From: an uncultured Gemmatimonadales bacterium
GTDB taxonomy: Bacteria; Gemmatimonadota; Gemmatimonadetes; Gemmatimonadales; GWC2-71-9
Assembly: GCA_963821525.1 (NCBI GenBank)
Contig: CAWGED010000005.1
Coordinates: forward strand, 928,001-992,000
Length of the DNA stretch: 64,000 bases
Direction: 5' to 3'
Shown here: in pieces, positions 49,386 through 59,810 of the stretch
Numbering within the stretch: position 1 is the stretch's first letter
Layout: each line of letters starts with the position of its first letter
Notes under the pieces: generated by a model
Seen by the model: the letters and a program-made list of their open reading frames with translations, nothing else
What the model was told of the DNA's origin: nothing
Database searches by the model: none
Program-made: the position numbers and the translations under genes

Positions 49386-49454
49386 CTGTCAATTCGGCAG
49401 GGAAATCGGGTACACCGCTTGCGATCGCGGGGCCCGATAGAGAAAATCCCCCAA

Positions 49455-52086
49455 ATGATCCGACCTGAACGTCTGACCATGAAGGCCCAGGAGGCCTTCC
49501 GCGATGCCGGCGAGGATGCGCGCCGGCGGGGAAACCCCGTGTCAACGACGCCCATCTGCTGGCCGCGCTGCTGCCAGGATGAGGGGTCGTGCAGCCCTGC
49601 TCCAGAAGGCGGGGGTGAACGTCACGGCGCTGCGGGAGGAGGTCGAGCGGGAACTGGCCGGTTCCCACCGCAGGCCGGGGCGACCGCCGAGCCGACCCTG
49701 AGCCGGGAGCTCACCCGGGTCTTCGATCGCGCCGAGAAGGAGGCCAAGACGCTCGACGACGCCTACGTCTCGACCGAGCACCTGCTCCTGGCGCTGGTCG
49801 ATGAGAAGGGCACCACGGCCCGCGCGCTGCTCAGCGCGCAGGGGGTCACGGCCGAGGACGCTGCGGGACGCGCTCGAGGGGGTGCGGGGCGCCCACCGGG
49901 TGACCGACCAGTCCCCCGAGGAGAAGTACCAGTCGCTGGAGCGCTTCACGCGGAACCTCACCGAGCAGGCCCGCAAGGGAAAGCTGGATCCCGTCATCGG
50001 TCGTGACGAGGAGGTGCGCCGGGTGATGCAGGTGCTTTCCCGCCGCACCAAGAACAATCCGGTCCTGATCGGCGAGCCCGGCGTCGGCAAGACCGCGATC
50101 GTCGAAGGGCTGGCCCAGCGCATCGTCAACGGGGACGTGCCGGAGTCGCTGCGCAGCAAGCAGATCGTGGCGCTCGACATCGGCCTGCTGCTGGCCGGCG
50201 CCAAGTATCGTGGCGAATTCGAGGAGCGGCTCAAGTCGGTGGTCAAGGAGCTGACCGAGACCGAGGGGCGGTACATCGTCTTCATCGACGAGCTGCACAC
50301 GATCGTGGGCGCGGGGGCGGCGGAGGGGGCGGTGGATGCGAGCAACCTGCTCAAGCCGGCGCTCGCCCGGGGCGAGCTGCACGTGATCGGTGCCACCACG
50401 CTCGACGAATACCGGAAGCACGTCGAGAAGGATGCCGCGCTCGAGCGCCGCTTCCAGCCGGTCCTGGTCGGCGAGACCGAGCGTCGCGGACACCATCGCC
50501 ATTCTCCGCGGCCTCAAGGAGAAGTACGAGGTCCACCACGGCGTCCGGATCACCGACAACGCGCTGGTGGCCGCCGCGACGCTCTCGGACCGCTACATCG
50601 GCGACCGGTTCCTGCCCGACAAGGCGATCGATCTGGTGGACGAGGCGGCGAGCCGGCTGCGGATCGAGATCGACAGCGCTGCCCCAGGAGATCGACGAAG
50701 TCGAGCGCCGGATGGTGCAGCTCGAGATCGAGCGCCAGGCGTTGCTGAAGGAGAAGGACAAGGCCGCCGAAGAGCGCCGTCGAGCAGCGGTCGAGCAGGA
50801 GATCTGCGCGAGCTGCGCGAGAAGAGCGCGGGGATGAAGGCGCAGTGGCAGGCGGAGAAGAGCGCCATTCAGGAGATCCAGGCCGGAAGGCGGAACTGGA
50901 AACGTTGCGCACGGAAGTGGATCTGGCCACCCGGCGGGGAGACCTGCAGAAGGCGGCCGAGCTGCAGTACGGCCGCATTCCCGAGCTGGAGCGAGATCGG
51001 GGCCAGGACGAAGCCGCCTGCAGGAGGTGCAGCGGAAGGCCCGCTATCTCAAGGAGGAAGTGGACGCGGAGGATATCGCGGAGATCGTCGCCAAGTGGAC
51101 CGGCATTCCGGTGACCAAGATGCTGGAGTCGCGAGCGCGAGCGGCTGACCCGGCTGGAGGCAGGAGCTGCGCCGCCGCGTGGTCGGGCCAGGAGGCGGCG
51201 GTCAGCGCAGTGGCCAACGCGGTGCGGCGGAGCCGGGCGGGCCTGGGCAGATCCGAACCGGCCGACCGGCTCGTTCATCTTCCTCGGCCCCACCGGGGTC
51301 GGCAAGACGGAGACCGCGCGCGCCCTCGCCGAGTTCCTGTTCGACGACGAGCGCGCCATGGTGCGCCTGGACATGTCGGAGTACATGGAGAAGCATGCGG
51401 TGGCCCGGATGATCGGCGCGCCGCCCGGATATATCGGGTACGAAGAGGGGGGTCAGCTCACCGAGGCGGTGCGGCGCCGGCCCTACAGCGTCGTGCTGTT
51501 CGACGAGATCGAAAAGGCGCACCCCGACGTCTTCAACGTGCTGCTGCAGATCCTGGACGACGGGCGGCTCACCGACAGCCAGGGCCGGGTGGTGGACTTC
51601 CGGAACACGGTCATCATCATGACGTCGAATCTCGGGGGCCACCTCATCGTCGAGGCGGGCGATGTGCCGATGCGACGGCCTGGTCGCGGTCGAGCGGAGC
51701 GTGCTGGAGCGAGCTGCGGCAACACTTCCGGCCGGAGTTCCTCAACCGGGTCGACGAGATCATCGTCTTCCGCCCGCTGACCCGGGAGGATCTGGCGCAG
51801 ATCGTGGATCTGCAACTGACCGGGCTGGAGCGCTTGCTGGCGCAGCGGAAGATCGGGCTGGACGTGACGCCCGAGGCGCGGGAGCTGCTGGCGCATCCAG
51901 GGGTACGATCCGGTGTACGGCGCGCGGCCGCTCAAGCGGGTGATTCAGCGCCGGCTGCAGAATCCGATCGCCCTGGAGCTGCTCGAGGGCGACTATCCCG
52001 AGGGAGACACGATCATGGTGGATGTGCAGGGCGGAGCGCTCCGGTTCACCCGCAAGGGCCGGGCACCCGAGGCAGCGAGTGCGTGA
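49455..52086 (+). CDS. clpB: ATP-dependent chaperone ClpB (many frameshifts)
   Basis: [34 protein letters not shown], coiled-coil M domain (AAELQYG), [17 protein letters not shown]. Confidence 0.95.
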
Positions 52087-52721: not shown

Positions 52722-53240
52722 TTACGGCTTCGGCGCCGTCGTATCGCGCGCCGCCGGCGATGTCGTCTGACCCGAAGGCTCGAGCTTACCGCAGGCGATG
52801 ACCGCCCTGTCCGACTTCGACTTCAGGACGCTCACCGAATACTCTCCTCCCGCTTTGGGCTGGAAGGGAACATTGGCCCGTGCGGTACCACGGCCTTCGG
52901 CGTCCACCTTGATGGGCGGATAGGTGCCCTCGACCGACATCGCCTCGGTGCCGCAGCGGCCGGAGCCGATCTTCCAGGGATACTCACCCGGTGTGGCGCC
53001 GTTGATCGAGATGGCGGCCCACGATCCTCCGGTCGCCTTCGCGGTATCACCCGGCACCTTGGTGGTGTCCGGTTTCTGCATGCTCGGCGCAGCCGCATCG
53101 CTGACGTCTACCGTCGCCGTCCCGGTAATATTCGACCCACCGACCGAGCTGAGAGTCGCCATCCAGGTTGTGTTGAACGGCGTAGCCAGAGCCCATAGAA
53201 CACCGGCTCCGGCACAGAGCGTGAGTTTGCGTACCAACAT
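52722..53240 (-). CDS. Exported Cu/Zn-SOD-fold protein, paralog 1 (His ligands absent)
   Basis: W.A.L..VGGS.ITGTA, EYPWKIGSGRCG, YSVSVL, IACG. Paralog of the two genes upstream. Confidence 0.7.
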   Translation of the reverse strand: MLVRKLTLCAGAGVLWALATPFNTTWMATLSSVGGSNITGTATVDVSDAAAPSMQKPDTTKVPGDTAKATGGSWAAISINGATPGEYPWKIGSGRCGTEAMSVEGTYPPIKVDAEGRGTARANVPFQPKAGGEYSVSVLKSKSDRAVIACGKLEPSGQTTSPAARDTTAPKP

Positions 53241-53291
53241 GTGCTTCTCCGGCTGAGATGAGAGTCCCGTCAGGCCTTCCTGGCTACCCGC

Positions 53292-53832
53292 TTACGGCTT
53301 GGGTGCAGTCGTATCGCGCGGGGGCATTCTGCATCTGCTCGCCGCCGCCCTTCAGATCGCCGCAGGAAATGACGGCCTTGTCCGTCATGGACTTGTGCAC
53401 GTTCACCGAATAGTCGGTGCCGGGCGTCGGCTTGAAGCTGATGCTGGCCTGGGAAGTGCCCTTGCCATCCGCCGAGACCTTGATCGGTTTATACGGGCTT
53501 TCGCCGCCAACCGGGGGCCCTGCCGAGCCACACTTGCCCGTGTGTACATGCCAGGGATACTCGCCTTCTTTCGCTCCACTGATCGTGACGCTCGCCTTAG
53601 CGGTCTCGCCAGCGGGGGCCGGAGCGGCCTTCTTGGCGGAATCGTAGGCGCCCGCAGGCGGAGCCTGATCGGGTTTGGCCATGCCGGCGTCCGGAACGTC
53701 AACCGTCGCTGTCCCGCTGACGGCCGAGCCGCCGACGGGCGAGAGGGTGGCCGTCCAGCTGGTGGCGATGGGCTTGGCCAGCACGAACAGGAGTCCTACA
53801 CCTGCGCATAGCGTGAGTTTGCGTGACAGCAT
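53292..53832 (-). CDS. Exported Cu/Zn-SOD-fold protein, paralog 2 (HxH + H retained; extra base near 53328)
   Basis: EYPWHVHTGKCG, YSVNVHKS, ISCGDL. Stop inferred from paralog 3. Confidence 0.78.
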
Positions 53833-54019
53833 TTTCCTTCCTCCTACTGAGATTCTACGTTCACCTCAGGCACACACTCCGGGATTTACGCCTTCCTGGC
53901 CTGATGGGGCGGTGGCGGAGGAATGCGGCGCCTGCTCCTGCATTGCTTGAGCGCCGGCGTCACAAACCTCCGCCTGACATGAAGCGCGGGAGCGCCCCGC
54001 TCCCGGTCCTGCTACGCGC

Positions 54020-54553
54020 TTACGGCTTGGGTGCAGTCGTATCGCGCGGGGGCATCTGCATCTGGTCGCCACCACCCTGCAGATCGCCGCAGGAGATGAC
54101 TGCCTTGTCCTTGTTCTGCACGTTCACCGAATAGTCGGTGCCGGGCGTCGGCTTGAAGCCGATGTTGGCCTGCGCCGTGCCCTTGCCATCCGCCGAGACC
54201 TTGATCGGTGAATAGGCGCTCTCGGACCCTACGGCCGGCCCATTCGAGCCGCACTTGCCCGAGGTCACACGCCAGGGATACTCCCCTTCTTTCGCTCCAC
54301 TGATCGTGATGCTGGCGCGAGCCGATTCGCCGCCGGGGGCCGGAGTGGCCTTCTTGGCGGAATCGTAGGCGCCCGCAGGCGGAGCCTGATCGGGCTTGGC
54401 CATGCCGGCGTCTGGAACGTCAACCGTCGCCGTCCCGCTGACGGCCGAGCCGCCGACGGGGGAGAGGGTGGCCGTCCAGCTGGTAGCGATGGGCTTGGCC
54501 AGCGCGAACAGGAGTCCTACTCCTGCGCACAGCGTGAGTTTGCGTGACAGCAT
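54020..54553 (-). CDS. Exported Cu/Zn-SOD-fold protein, paralog 3 (His ligands absent)
   Basis: Closely similar to paralog 2 but has EYPWRVTSGKCG and YSVNVQ. Confidence 0.75.
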   Translation of the reverse strand: MLSRKLTLCAGVGLLFALAKPIATSWTATLSPVGGSAVSGTATVDVPDAGMAKPDQAPPAGAYDSAKKATPAPGGESARASITISGAKEGEYPWRVTSGKCGSNGPAVGSESAYSPIKVSADGKGTAQANIGFKPTPGTDYSVNVQNKDKAVISCGDLQGGGDQMQMPPRDTTAPKP

Positions 54554-54742: not shown

Positions 54743-55174
54743 TCAGGCACTGGCGCTATCCTCCTCGGCGGGCATTGCCCGCAGCGAGCGTCCACCGACA
54801 CCACGGCGCCGGAACTGCTCGGCGAGACGAGTGTATTCGGTGCGGATCTTCTCCTGGGCATCCTCGTCCAGCTCCTCCAGGTCGAGCAACAGATTGCGCG
54901 CAGCGGGGAGCACCCGAATCAACTCGTCGAGCTTGATCTGGAGCGCCATCGTGTCCCGGTTCTGGGTGTTCTGAATCAGGAACACCATGAGGAACGTGAT
55001 GATCGTGGTTCCGGTGTTGATGACCAGCTGCCAGGTATCGCTGAACCCGAACAGCGGCCCGGTCACCGCCCAAATCAGCACGATGGTGACCGCGATACCG
55101 AATGCCACAGGCCGCCCAGTCCAGCGGGCGCCGTGTTTGGCGAATCGTCCAAACCACGTGTCGTTATCCGTCAT
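54743..55174 (-). CDS. Low-affinity iron permease (Fet4-like) family small membrane protein
   Basis: TGPLFGFSDTWQLVINTGTTIITFLMVFLIQNTQNRD..ALQIKLDELI. Confidence 0.93.
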   Translation of the reverse strand: MTDNDTWFGRFAKHGARWTGRPVAFGIAVTIVLIWAVTGPLFGFSDTWQLVINTGTTIITFLMVFLIQNTQNRDTMALQIKLDELIRVLPAARNLLLDLEELDEDAQEKIRTEYTRLAEQFRRRGVGGRSLRAMPAEEDSASA

Positions 55175-55216: not shown

Positions 55217-55444
55217 TTATCGACCCGCCTTGATGTCACGCTCCGTTTGATACTGCTCCCGAAATTCCTTCACCTGACGCTCGGCCTCTTCCTTGGCCTC
55301 ACCGTAATGAGTCTGGATCAAGCCGGTCAGGCGATCCCAGTTACCGCTCACGATGTCGAGCTGATCGTCGGTCAGCTGACCCCAACGCTGTTTGATCTTC
55401 CCTTTGAGTTGCTTCCAGGTGCCTTCGATCTGGTCCGAATTCAT
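55217..55444 (-). CDS. CsbD family general stress protein
   Basis: DQIEG.WKQLKGKIKQRWG.LTDD.L..G..D.L.G.IQ..YG..KEEAE. RBS GGGAG. Confidence 0.93.
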   Translation of the reverse strand: MNSDQIEGTWKQLKGKIKQRWGQLTDDQLDIVSGNWDRLTGLIQTHYGEAKEEAERQVKEFREQYQTERDIKAGR

Positions 55445-55512: not shown

Positions 55513-55626
55513 CAAATGAAATGGCGCGAACCCGTCCACCGACGGAATCCGCGCCTTCGACTGAAGGGGCCAACTCCCCTTCCGACCAGGCGGCTTGGCC
55601 CGATGCCAAGCCATCATTGTTCCAAC
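55513..55626 (-). ncRNA. Candidate structured leader RNA, copy A (upstream of csbD), with overlapping terminator-like hairpin
   Basis: Core 55547-55612 matches 56037-56101 with compensatory changes. Hairpin 55523-55555 is followed by AUUUCAUUUG. Confidence 0.65.
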
Positions 55627-55632
55627 GTTGAC

Positions 55633-55675
55633 AGTTTACCAAGCGGCGTGATCACTCGAAGTGCCGAGGATCACA
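55633..55675 (-). promoter_or_regulatory. Putative extended -10 promoter with CRP/FNR-like site centred at -41.5
   Basis: TGG-TAAACT at 55641-55633 and TGTGA-N6-GCACT at 55675-55660. Confidence 0.5.
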
Positions 55676-55897
55676 TTTATTTCACGACTTTACTCCGCAC
55701 CCCGCATAGCCTCGGCGTTGATGCGCCGTTCGGCGCCGTACAATTCACATGGCGAGCCGCGTCATGCGTCGCAGAGTCCAAGCGCGTCTCGGACCGAGCG
55801 ATGGGAGTCTAGGACGTCGGCGTGGATGACTCCTTCGTCCTGCAGCGACGATCATATCCGGCACGAAGCAAGACTGCGATCACTGACTGCGAGCAGT

Positions 55898-55963
55898 TCA
55901 TTCCTGAGCGAACACCGCAGCCATGATCGCCAAGACCAGGAACGCCAGTGCAGTACGAAACAC
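55898..55963 (-). CDS. Small hydrophobic ORF resembling the DUF1328 N-terminus (possibly truncated by an indel)
   Basis: GGAGG RBS, GTG start, MFRTALAFLVLAIMAAVFAQE*. Confidence 0.45.
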   Translation of the reverse strand: MFRTALAFLVLAIMAAVFAQE

Positions 55964-55997
55964 GAGACCTCCAGAAGCGCCTGAGCGCCAAGAGGTT

Positions 55998-56116
55998 GAA
56001 AACACTGAAGGCGCGGGCGACCCCAACAGGGCCAGCATCCGCGCCTTCGACTGAAGGGACTCTATCCCTTCCGACCAGGCGGCTTGACCTTGAGTCAAGC
56101 CTGCACCGTTTGATCC
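55998..56116 (-). ncRNA. Candidate structured leader RNA, copy B, with overlapping terminator-like hairpin
   Basis: Core 56037-56101. Hairpin 56007-56048 (gaaggcgcgg/ccgcgccttc) is followed by AGUGUUUUC. Confidence 0.65.
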
Positions 56117-56122
56117 TTTCGC

Positions 56123-56152
56123 AGGTTAGGGATATCGTGGGGTCCGCGTCAA
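56123..56152 (-). promoter_or_regulatory. Putative sigma70 promoter of RNA copy B
   Basis: TTGACG-N18-TAACCT. Confidence 0.5.
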
Positions 56153-56234: not shown

Positions 56235-56271
56235 GGACAGGTGTCCGAGTGGCTGAAGGAGCCGGTCTCGA
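56235..56271 (+). repeat. Exact 37-bp duplicate of the 5' half of tRNA-Ser(CGA)
   Basis: ggacaggtgtccgagtggctgaaggagccggtctcga is identical to 56365-56401. Confidence 0.92.
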
Positions 56272-56364: not shown

Positions 56365-56451
56365 GGACAGGTGTCCGAGTGGCTGAAGGAGCCGGTCTCG
56401 AAAACCGGTAAACCCGTAAGGGTTTCGAGGGTTCGAATCCCTCCCTGTCCG
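56365..56451 (+). tRNA. tRNA-Ser (anticodon CGA)
   Basis: Acceptor GGACAGG/CCTGTCC, anticodon arm CCGGT-CTCGAAA-ACCGG, long variable arm, GGTTCGAATCC. CCA not encoded. Confidence 0.96.
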
Positions 56452-57395: not shown

Positions 57396-57450
57396 GCGCG
57401 GCGCGGGGGCCTGAGATCTTCCAACAGGCTTTCCGCGCCGCGTTTTTTTT
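57396..57450 (+). terminator. Intrinsic terminator
   Basis: cgcggcgcgg..ccgcgccgcg stem followed by T8. Confidence 0.85.
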
Positions 57451-57659
57451 GCCGCAGATGAACGCAGATAAACGCAGAGTTCGCGATCATATTAGCCAAT
57501 GCCTCTTATTCAGAGGCAATTTATCGATCGGCAACAGGCTTCATCTCGGAGAGTTTGGTAGAGGCCGCGGATCAACGCGGATGAAGAAGCTCGGTTGATT
57601 CAATAGGTGGGGCCAGTACCCCTGCAGGTTATCTGCGTTTATCTGCGTTTATCTGCGGC
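57451..57659. mobile_element. MITE-like element with 28-bp terminal inverted repeats built of (AAACGCAGAT)n
   Basis: gccgcagatgaacgcagataaacgcaga versus tctgcgtttatctgcgtttatctgcggc (1 mismatch). AT-rich non-coding core. Shares AAACGCAGA with the GxxExxY cassette arms. Confidence 0.6.
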
Positions 57660-57698
57660 TGAATCAAGGCCTCCTATTCACGCGGCAATTCGGTAAGA

Positions 57699-58692
57699 AT
57701 GCAGGGCATCGATCGTTTCGTCGGATCCTTCCTCGGTCTCTGTCTGGGCGACGCGCTCGGAGCCCCAGTCGAGGCCGCCTCACCCGATGTCGCACGTCTC
57801 TACGTCGATCAGGAATGCGGGCCGGAAGAGCGGGCCATCGCGGCCGCGGCGAGTTCCCCTTCGGTCAGGTCACCGACGACTCACAACTCGCGCGCGAGCT
57901 GCTGATCTCCATCGCCGAGCGAAGGGAAGCCGATCCGGCGCACTTCGCAGTCGCGCCTCGGCGATCTGGTCGCCACGAACCGGGTGATCGGGGCAGGGCC
58001 GGGCACTATCGCGACTGGAGGGCGACTGCAGCAGGGCATCCCCTGGAATCAGGCGGGAGAGCCCGCACCATACTGCGGCAATGGCGCCGCCATGCGCGTG
58101 GCACCGCTCGGCGTGCTCTGGGCCGACGATTCGTCGCGCCTCATGCGAGCAGTGGTGGAGCAGGCTCGGGTGACTCACCACGATCCCCGTTGTGCCGCGG
58201 GCGCGGTTGCGATTGCCGCGGCCAGCATGGTCGCCTGCCGGTCCGACCGGCTCGACCCTCACGAGGTGTGTACCGAACTCGCTCGCCTTGCGGGTCAGGT
58301 GGACACGGGGATGGCCGCCGCAATCGAGAAGGTGGAGCGTTTGGTGGCGATGGATCCGGAAGCAGGCCACAGCACTCGTTCATCGCGAACGTCCGGAGGC
58401 CGACTCAGGCAGTACGTGGCGCGGGGTGTCGAGCGAGGTTACCGGCAGCGTGTGCTGGAGTCTCTACGCCTTTCTCCGGTCTCCGGACGATTACTGGGAA
58501 ACGGTCTGTACCGCGATCGGCGCCGGCGGCGACACCGATACCACCGCCGCGATGGCCGGCGGAATCGTCGGTGCGCGTGTTGGCTTGAAGGGTCTGCCGC
58601 AGGAACTTCTCGCCCGGCTGAATGACCAGGGAGAATGGAGGGTCGCCGAGCTTACCAGGCTGGCCCAGCGCTGCTACGAGGCGTGCCGGTGA
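57699..58692 (+). CDS. ADP-ribosylglycohydrolase family protein (frameshifts)
   Basis: LGDALGAPVE, GQVTDDSQ, GNGAAMRVAP, GGDTDTTAAMAG. Confidence 0.92.
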
Positions 58693-59684: not shown

Positions 59685-59810
59685 GGTCGAAAGTCGATAG
59701 TCGATGGTCAGTGGTCCTTGGTCTTAGACCTCGCGTCCCTATCCTCGGTTTGGGCTTTGCGCGGACCCAACACCCATGACCTATGACCATCGACCATTGA
59801 CCATCGACCA
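59685..59810. repeat. Inverted heptamer tandem-repeat element (GTCGATR)n ... (GACCATY)n
   Basis: gtcgaaagtcgatagtcgatggtc and gacctatgaccatcgaccattgaccatcgacc. Same family as 18857-18946. Confidence 0.8.

Follow-up and report, generated by a model that had tools for sequence, protein, structure and literature searches.

A conserved leader RNA that overlaps terminator-like hairpins in Gemmatimonadota and other phyla, with a response regulator as its candidate partner

Background

For antiterminating response regulators, the RNA-binding output given in reviews of the field is the ANTAR domain (PMC12591593, PMC12471899). The ANTAR regulators (EutV/EutW, AmiR, NasR, PdtaR) join a receiver to a coiled coil and a small helical output and have a kinase partner, and in their leaders a target of two adjacent hairpins overlaps the 5' arm of an intrinsic terminator (excerpts of PMC3369931 and PMC12591593); the hairpins are short, with 3-bp stems and hexaloops that carry A1 and G4 (excerpt of PMC3369931). 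The RAT of the BglG/SacY/LicT systems is instead a single irregular stem-loop, some 30-40 nt in length; it overlaps a terminator and persists only with the help of a protein (excerpts of PMC12591593 and PMC3369931). [quoted passage not shown]

The element described here resembles all of these. Its candidate partner gene encodes a receiver, a coiled coil and a predicted small helical output with a kinase at its side, its core is a single irregular helix that runs into the 5' arm of a terminator, and many copies have a second hairpin adjacent to the core. Unlike ANTAR regulators, the candidate partner has no PF03861 match, and this family is absent among the 25 most-matched families listed for 150 members; nor does any of 121 apical loops fit the A1/G4 hexaloop, the conservation lying in the stem. 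An ANTAR gene was found neither in this genome (G000, 81% complete) nor in its congener G001 (98% complete), and the CAT domain (PF03123) was found in 0 of 5 genomes, whereas controls were positive in 4 of 14. Unlike BglG/SacY, control would be through a receiver and kinase rather than PRD and PTS, and the targets are not sugar operons. Unlike Rfam riboswitches, the RNA is tied to one regulator gene rather than one pathway, and host range sets it apart from WRC-39-1. The RNA-regulator system would work like EutV/EutW and BglG-RAT but, judged by its domains and loops, is a member of neither. We found no description of it in the literature, with terms for it absent from the main texts of PMC8632094 and bioRxiv 10.64898/2026.10.21.760802; an unnamed entry in catalogue supplements (for example, PMC11109978 and PMC5737381) is possible.

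Results and discussion

Two copies of the element in the window

The window, a 64,000-nt stretch of one contig of an uncultured Gemmatimonadales bacterium, holds on its minus strand two copies of the repeat as an earlier, sequence-only reading had described them: they lie about 490 bp apart (spacing 489-490), and the letters of both copies show that they differ only in loops or by one compensatory G-C/A-U swap per stem. Copy B is preceded by a predicted sigma70-like promoter (56123..56152; TTGACG, 18 nt, TAACCT), of which the -35 hexamer is retained by two congeners. It consists of a 21-nt hairpin P1 (56081..56101; variable in sequence across the family) that ends 1 nt before the conserved core (56044..56079; a putative antiterminator helix, defined by covariance model and covariation), followed by a terminator-like hairpin and U-rich tail (55999..56048), the 5' arm of which starts within the GAAGG of the core. 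A DUF1328-like ORF truncated to 21 aa follows (55898..55963), with the same start as the full-length gene of G001. Copy A has a predicted extended -10-like site (55633..55641; TG-N-TAAACT, similar in congeners), a 21-nt P1 (55592..55612) 1 nt upstream of its core (55554..55590; again a putative antiterminator helix, from the covariance model) and a terminator-like hairpin with a U-rich tail (55514..55555). The first gene behind it is csbD-like (55217..55444; PF05532, E 1.8e-18), and the next encodes a Fet4-like low-affinity iron permease (54743..55174; PF04120, E 4.2e-51). All of these features are on the minus strand.

Folding of the two 131-nt regions beats 200 of 200 shuffles (z -4.07 and -4.30). 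Core and terminator overlap by 3 bp in copy A and by 6 bp in copy B, with fold differences of 2.7 and 7.7 kcal/mol, respectively. The proposal that the two folds exclude each other holds in that the 3' strand of the core enters the terminator, but the overlap is small in copy A and the U-tracts are imperfect. A strict scan called none of the promoters and terminators of either copy, the sigma70-like site of leader B lying below its threshold. The downstream genes had been named correctly as csbD and a permease; the third, a DUF1328-like peptide, is an ORF cut at 21 codons, with no Pfam match.

The interval between the copies (55660-55900) varies by congener, with a whole DUF1328 gene in G001 (matching a DUF1328 protein at 43%) and DUF892 remnants in G004 and at locus L003; neither gene is intact at this place in the window, and copy B is deleted in G004. 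To judge from these sequences, the locus is decaying within the genus. Small shares of the window (0.10-0.18) are contained in 20 soil or rhizosphere RNA runs. Contigs of relatives from four of these span terminator A into csbD and end at 55570, 55597, 55600 and 55613, and one contig covers 55929-56099, but such contigs are assembled and possibly DNA-derived, and are informative for neither starts nor termination.

A covarying RNA family outside Rfam

A search of Rfam 15 gave no match at E<=10 in the window or at E<=5 in 16 further loci, in line with the earlier reading, which had matched the copies to none of the c-di-GMP-I/II, glnA, ZTP, SAH, ykkC, fluoride and ANTAR consensus patterns. The exact two-copy pattern occurs in only one relative, also of the Gemmatimonadales, and strict patterns gave four to seven matches in each of four congeners, where the reversed pattern gave 0. 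Loose sequence patterns were rejected as a count of the family: many matches fell in coding DNA, the reversed pattern rang in 22 of 251 genomes, and 64 of the first 80 loci had neither terminator nor regulator. Because loose patterns matched coding DNA, we replaced pattern counts with covariance models, and the search for relatives that the earlier reading had proposed, together with its table of downstream genes, found the family in several phyla. Model R1 (trained on 44 copies, from Gemmatimonadales only) detected 11 copies in this genome at E<=5.1e-6, on contigs C4, C5, C10, C12 and C19, nine of which are its own training rows and two of which are new (the next match, the twelfth, is at E 0.2); nine copies had come from a descriptor search of this genome.

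The consensus reads CCUUG-N-CG, a hairpin of about 7 bp, and AG-N-YGAAGGC. CCUU pairs with AAGG and G-N-C with G-N-Y, a G.A apposition closes the lower stem, and one bulged G is present in all 125 alignment rows; the core is a single irregular helix of 36-40 nt with about 14 conserved bases. Apical loops are 3-9 nt long, and the conservation is located in the stem, apart from one position 8 nt ahead of the conserved A, at the end of the apical loop, where 115 of 123 copies have G. What had been taken for an invariant internal loop, GGUCG/AGUCGA, consists in the family mostly of paired bases (G-C, a variable pair, C-G, G.A and the bulged G); the alternative pairing of CCUUC with GAAGG is peculiar to the two window copies.

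Covariation in the alignment is 0.347, compared with 0.134 after shuffling and less than 0.1 in slid controls, these scores being inflated by relatedness. Other phyla contribute 44 distinct copies, for which it is 0.324 compared with 0.171 in an alignment made to the model and hence biased towards its consensus, and one lower-stem pair in such copies is G-C in 29, U-A in seven and A-U in six. The stems covary, and 41 of 41 matches in other phyla lie on one strand, unlike the random orientation that the sequence-only reading had associated with a REP-like repeat.

Overlap with terminators

The AAGG strand of the core pairs into a downstream hairpin with a U-rich tail in 116 of 123 distinct copies (the 125 alignment rows minus two, a fragment or duplicate), compared with 14 in shuffles. 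After removal of three doubtful rows, leaving 121 copies, the entire GAAGG lies within the terminator in 101, the 3' arm of the terminator repeats the CCUU of the core in 107, and the terminator fold is the more stable in 119, by a median of 5.6 kcal/mol. Because the terminator fold is favoured by this margin, the default state is probably OFF, and protein binding could overturn a margin of this size. The terminator test was negative for the copy that follows the regulator gene of G553.

The adjacent hairpin P1, which is free in sequence, is found in 81 of 123 copies, compared with 24 in shuffles. Of the 69 Gemmatimonadota copies, 30 have a sigma70-like site upstream, where 1.2 would be expected, and of the 54 copies from other phyla, 26 have a sigma28-like site upstream, where 3.0 would be expected; both patterns were selected after the sequences had been inspected. 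Tandem leaders, each with its own core and terminator, stand before csbD at L019:10348-10600 (G000:C4:115348-115600), L110, L142 and L243, an arrangement that could possibly give a sharper threshold.

A response regulator with an unclassified output domain

Contig C4 of this genome carries a gene for a membrane PAS histidine kinase and one for a response regulator; one copy of the element lies ahead of this pair and three lie behind it. The response regulator gene (G000:C4:114499-115230, outside the window) encodes a receiver and an unclassified C-terminal domain. Its receiver is intact, residues D11, D12, D55, T83 and K105 being invariant in 50 sequences, and a kinase gene is directly upstream at 75 of 76 Gemmatimonadota loci and at 34 of 72 loci of other phyla. 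The C-terminal part is a basic, all-helical stretch of about 120 residues, comprising at least 601 clusters at 50% identity, with the motifs CxxxxCP and a basic LExTKxxFKSKxLGxLR, a conserved basic patch and a net charge of +1 to +5 in 49 of 49 rows; a few family members bear PAS domains. The source annotation of the family is 'DNA-binding response OmpR family regulator', but Pfam and NCBIfam match the receiver only and give no family for the C-terminal part.

The predicted monomer is all helical (pLDDT 85.9, pTM 0.51). Receivers dominate a full-length fold search, with EutV at rank 46 (rmsd 19.6). For the C-terminal domain alone there is no Foldseek match at E<=0.001; the best VIA match (Z 8.2) covers residues 1-65 only, among generic helical matches; a profile search against structures gave a non-significant Pumilio-protein match (E 0.32) and no ANTAR structure; and the ESM Atlas gave one match, at 0.75, of no family. 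Sequence and fold searches thus contain no homology or fold match between this domain and a known RNA-binding domain. We do not claim a new fold, which the Atlas, NCBIfam, Foldseek, VIA and profile results do not show.

Regulator paralogues occur in tandem in other phyla, with a motif copy after each, at L185, L191, L212, L383/L387 and L164/L193. At L137:3802-3844, in G025, both the regulator (47% across the part that matched) and the core behind it are divergent; the core has swapped lower-stem pairs and a terminator of its own, a hint that regulator and core have diverged together.

Co-occurrence of RNA and regulator

The regulator is present in 38 of 251 genomes of the order Gemmatimonadales. 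Using R1 at E<=0.001, we detected the RNA in 34 of 37 regulator-positive genomes (all carriers besides this genome) compared with two of 43 regulator-negative genomes (taken from 213 negatives, and including every one of the 20 that belong to mixed genera and of the 12 in which the strict pattern had matched); much of this co-occurrence is physical linkage, and because the genomes include kin and are not independent, P values for it are overstated. Training sequences came from 22 of the 37, and 12 of the remaining 15 are RNA-positive. Restricting the comparison to mixed genera leaves 25 of 27 genomes with the regulator and two of 20 without it. In the three regulator-positive genomes that R1 missed, diverged copies that have terminators lie close to the regulator. 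Unlinked copies (on another contig or more than 20 kb from the regulator; 47 copies in 11 genomes) occur in 11 of 37 compared with two of 43 genomes, a count that fragmented assemblies inflate, and because of these unlinked copies linkage alone does not account for the co-occurrence. Two genomes, G158 (97% complete) and G183 (100%), have the RNA with terminators, and in neither did even a profile search match the regulator. At the level of loci, 80 regulator loci of Gemmatimonadota were searched, of which 65 have a copy no more than 3 kb away and 15 have none within that distance.

Outside this phylum we searched 80 regulator loci, some of them near-duplicates, from Planctomycetota, KSB1, Armatimonadota, Acidobacteriota, Deltaproteobacteria, Zixibacteria, Verrucomicrobiota, Chloroflexota and others. 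R1 gave 41 matches at E<=0.01 in 34 of them, all on the strand of the regulator, and 34 of these matches sit at most 450 nt behind the regulator match; the other 46 loci have no R1 match at this threshold within 5 kb. In a scan that started from the motif (80 of 125 loci had long flanks), the domain lay within 5 kb at 14 of the 15 loci that have both a hairpin and a terminator, or on 10 of 11 contigs, compared with one of 65 others, and that one itself bears a terminator. For the planctomycete class of G270, the same five of 146 genomes have the regulator and the RNA (E<1e-5; next best E 0.005), two of the five carriers being in the training set of model R2, and in the phylum of G272 (146 genomes) two genomes carry the regulator and these same two give the best RNA matches. 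G484 has a good RNA copy at a contig edge, and the regulator was not found there. Weak model matches in regulator-negative genomes were rejected as true copies, 14 of 16 such loci (11 from the phylum of G272 and five from the class of G270) being without a terminator.

Genes behind the element

Genes for CsbD, DUF892 and DUF1328 stress proteins are usually under an alternative sigma factor. In this genome, copies of the element precede csbD, DUF892 and other stress-type genes as well as the kinase/response-regulator pair. Scanning 74 downstream proteins for families gave CsbD (10), sigma54 activators (four), PAS or kinase proteins (six), MCP (four), beta-barrel proteins (three), two each of DUF892, DUF1328, DUF4397, CheW and FliM, one each of topoisomerase IB, pyridoxamine-oxidase-like protein, hemerythrin, NMT1-like binding protein and Hpt, and several receivers, including the regulator itself; 17 had no family. 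Stress-type targets dominate in Gemmatimonadota, and chemotaxis targets elsewhere. Contrary to its earlier description as a stress-gene leader, the element also heads genes of other kinds, and the first hairpin is not conserved in sequence. Target genes and promoter type differ by lineage, but the regulator stays constant, and for this reason we favour a protein over a metabolite ligand, two options between which the sequence-only reading had not chosen.

At L220:5573-6964 a copy lies upstream of an NMT1_2-family binding protein; this family includes the nitrate-binding NrtA, a classic ANTAR target. Another copy in this genome (L020:9243-16000, on contig C12) stands at the head of a PAS hybrid kinase gene, behind which lie KaiC- and KaiB-like genes.

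Proposed mechanism and alternatives

The repeats are real and conserved copies of a putative RNA switch, undescribed so far, for which the regulator is a strong candidate partner. The earlier proposal of an ON-type terminator/antiterminator switch, one that lies outside Rfam, finds support in the covariation, the overlap with terminators and the gene context. Our main reading, to which we give about three chances in four, is that an undescribed two-component antitermination system uses the element as its RNA target, the phosphorylated regulator binding the core and blocking the terminator. A sigma70-like promoter would make a short leader, on which transcription would stop at the terminator by default. 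The membrane PAS histidine kinase would phosphorylate the response regulator, and the helical C-terminal domain of the latter would bind the nascent core at the bulged G, the G.A apposition and the G at the end of the apical loop. Bound regulator would keep GAAGG from the 3' arm of the terminator, so that polymerase reads into csbD and the other targets, and the copy before the kinase gene would give positive feedback.

Control may be less direct: the regulator might act by way of a Nus factor, RNA polymerase or some further protein, or it might promote termination until the signal releases it, with the RNA as a loading site and not a fold to be stabilised. Co-occurrence fits any functional link, the adjacent P1 is enriched yet has no conserved sequence, and the C-terminal domain resembles no known RNA binder; we nevertheless consider this unlikely, because it is the terminator-excluding helix that holds the conserved bases and because the terminator 3' arm mimics the 5' strand of the core (107 of 121 copies), as expected of plain competition, and because tandem leaders with a core and terminator each argue against processive antitermination. 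The element might instead be a riboswitch for a small molecule or ion that is made or controlled by the same two-component system, for example if the C-terminal domain makes or binds a second messenger. Its layout is that of a classic aptamer over a terminator, second-messenger riboswitches govern stress, chemotaxis and signalling genes of the kind found here as targets, and G158 and G183 have orphan RNA copies. Against this, a helix of 36-40 nt with about 14 conserved bases is probably small for an aptamer, the C-terminal domain matches no enzyme or ligand-binding family, and a common metabolite would not restrict the RNA to regulator-bearing genomes, all of which makes a riboswitch unlikely.

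We think it very improbable that the regulator uses the element as a DNA site, or that the element is a repeat without switch function which is carried along in a stress island. Most copies outside Gemmatimonadota do adjoin the regulator gene, copies cluster in stress islands, and the window locus is in decay; but changes are compensatory or preserve G.U pairs, orientation is uniform, the overlap with otherwise unrelated terminators is fixed, and the 47 unlinked copies are spread over 11 genomes.

A broader picture also seems probable: the C-terminal domain would be a new RNA-binding output, unrelated to ANTAR and CAT, that reads a helix with a bulged G and a G.A apposition, and would define a second class of antiterminating two-component system with a patchy distribution among many phyla that are little cultured. 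By read-through from housekeeping-type promoters this class would run a general stress regulon in Gemmatimonadota, and elsewhere it would gate chemotaxis genes behind sigma28-like promoters. A second RNA-binding domain, unrelated to the first and with a predicted RNA site to itself, would be a further class of signalling output and would re-annotate a family of at least 601 clusters now labelled as OmpR-family DNA-binding proteins; csbD, DUF892 and DUF1328 stress genes would then be run by read-through in a common soil phylum. The small regulator-RNA pair could also serve as an orthogonal switch.

Other features of the window

After the permease gene, three tandem paralogues on the minus strand (52722-54553) encode secreted-looking proteins of 172-182 aa with no Pfam match; they have CHRD-like Atlas neighbours at 0.89 (the family being assigned to 26% of members), a similar-looking ORF follows a motif copy in locus L263, and the paralogues may be part of the regulon. 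On the plus strand, a 37-nt copy of the 5' end of a tRNA gene lies 130 nt from the gene (56235-56271 and 56365-56451); it is present in congeners too, and is perhaps the trace of an old boundary at which the stress cassette integrated. ClpB-like and ADP-ribosylglycohydrolase genes span several frames (49419-51780 and 57815-58692), which suggests indel errors in the assembly. Inverted tracts of short oligomer repeats are found in intergenic DNA at 57440-57670 and 59685-59809.
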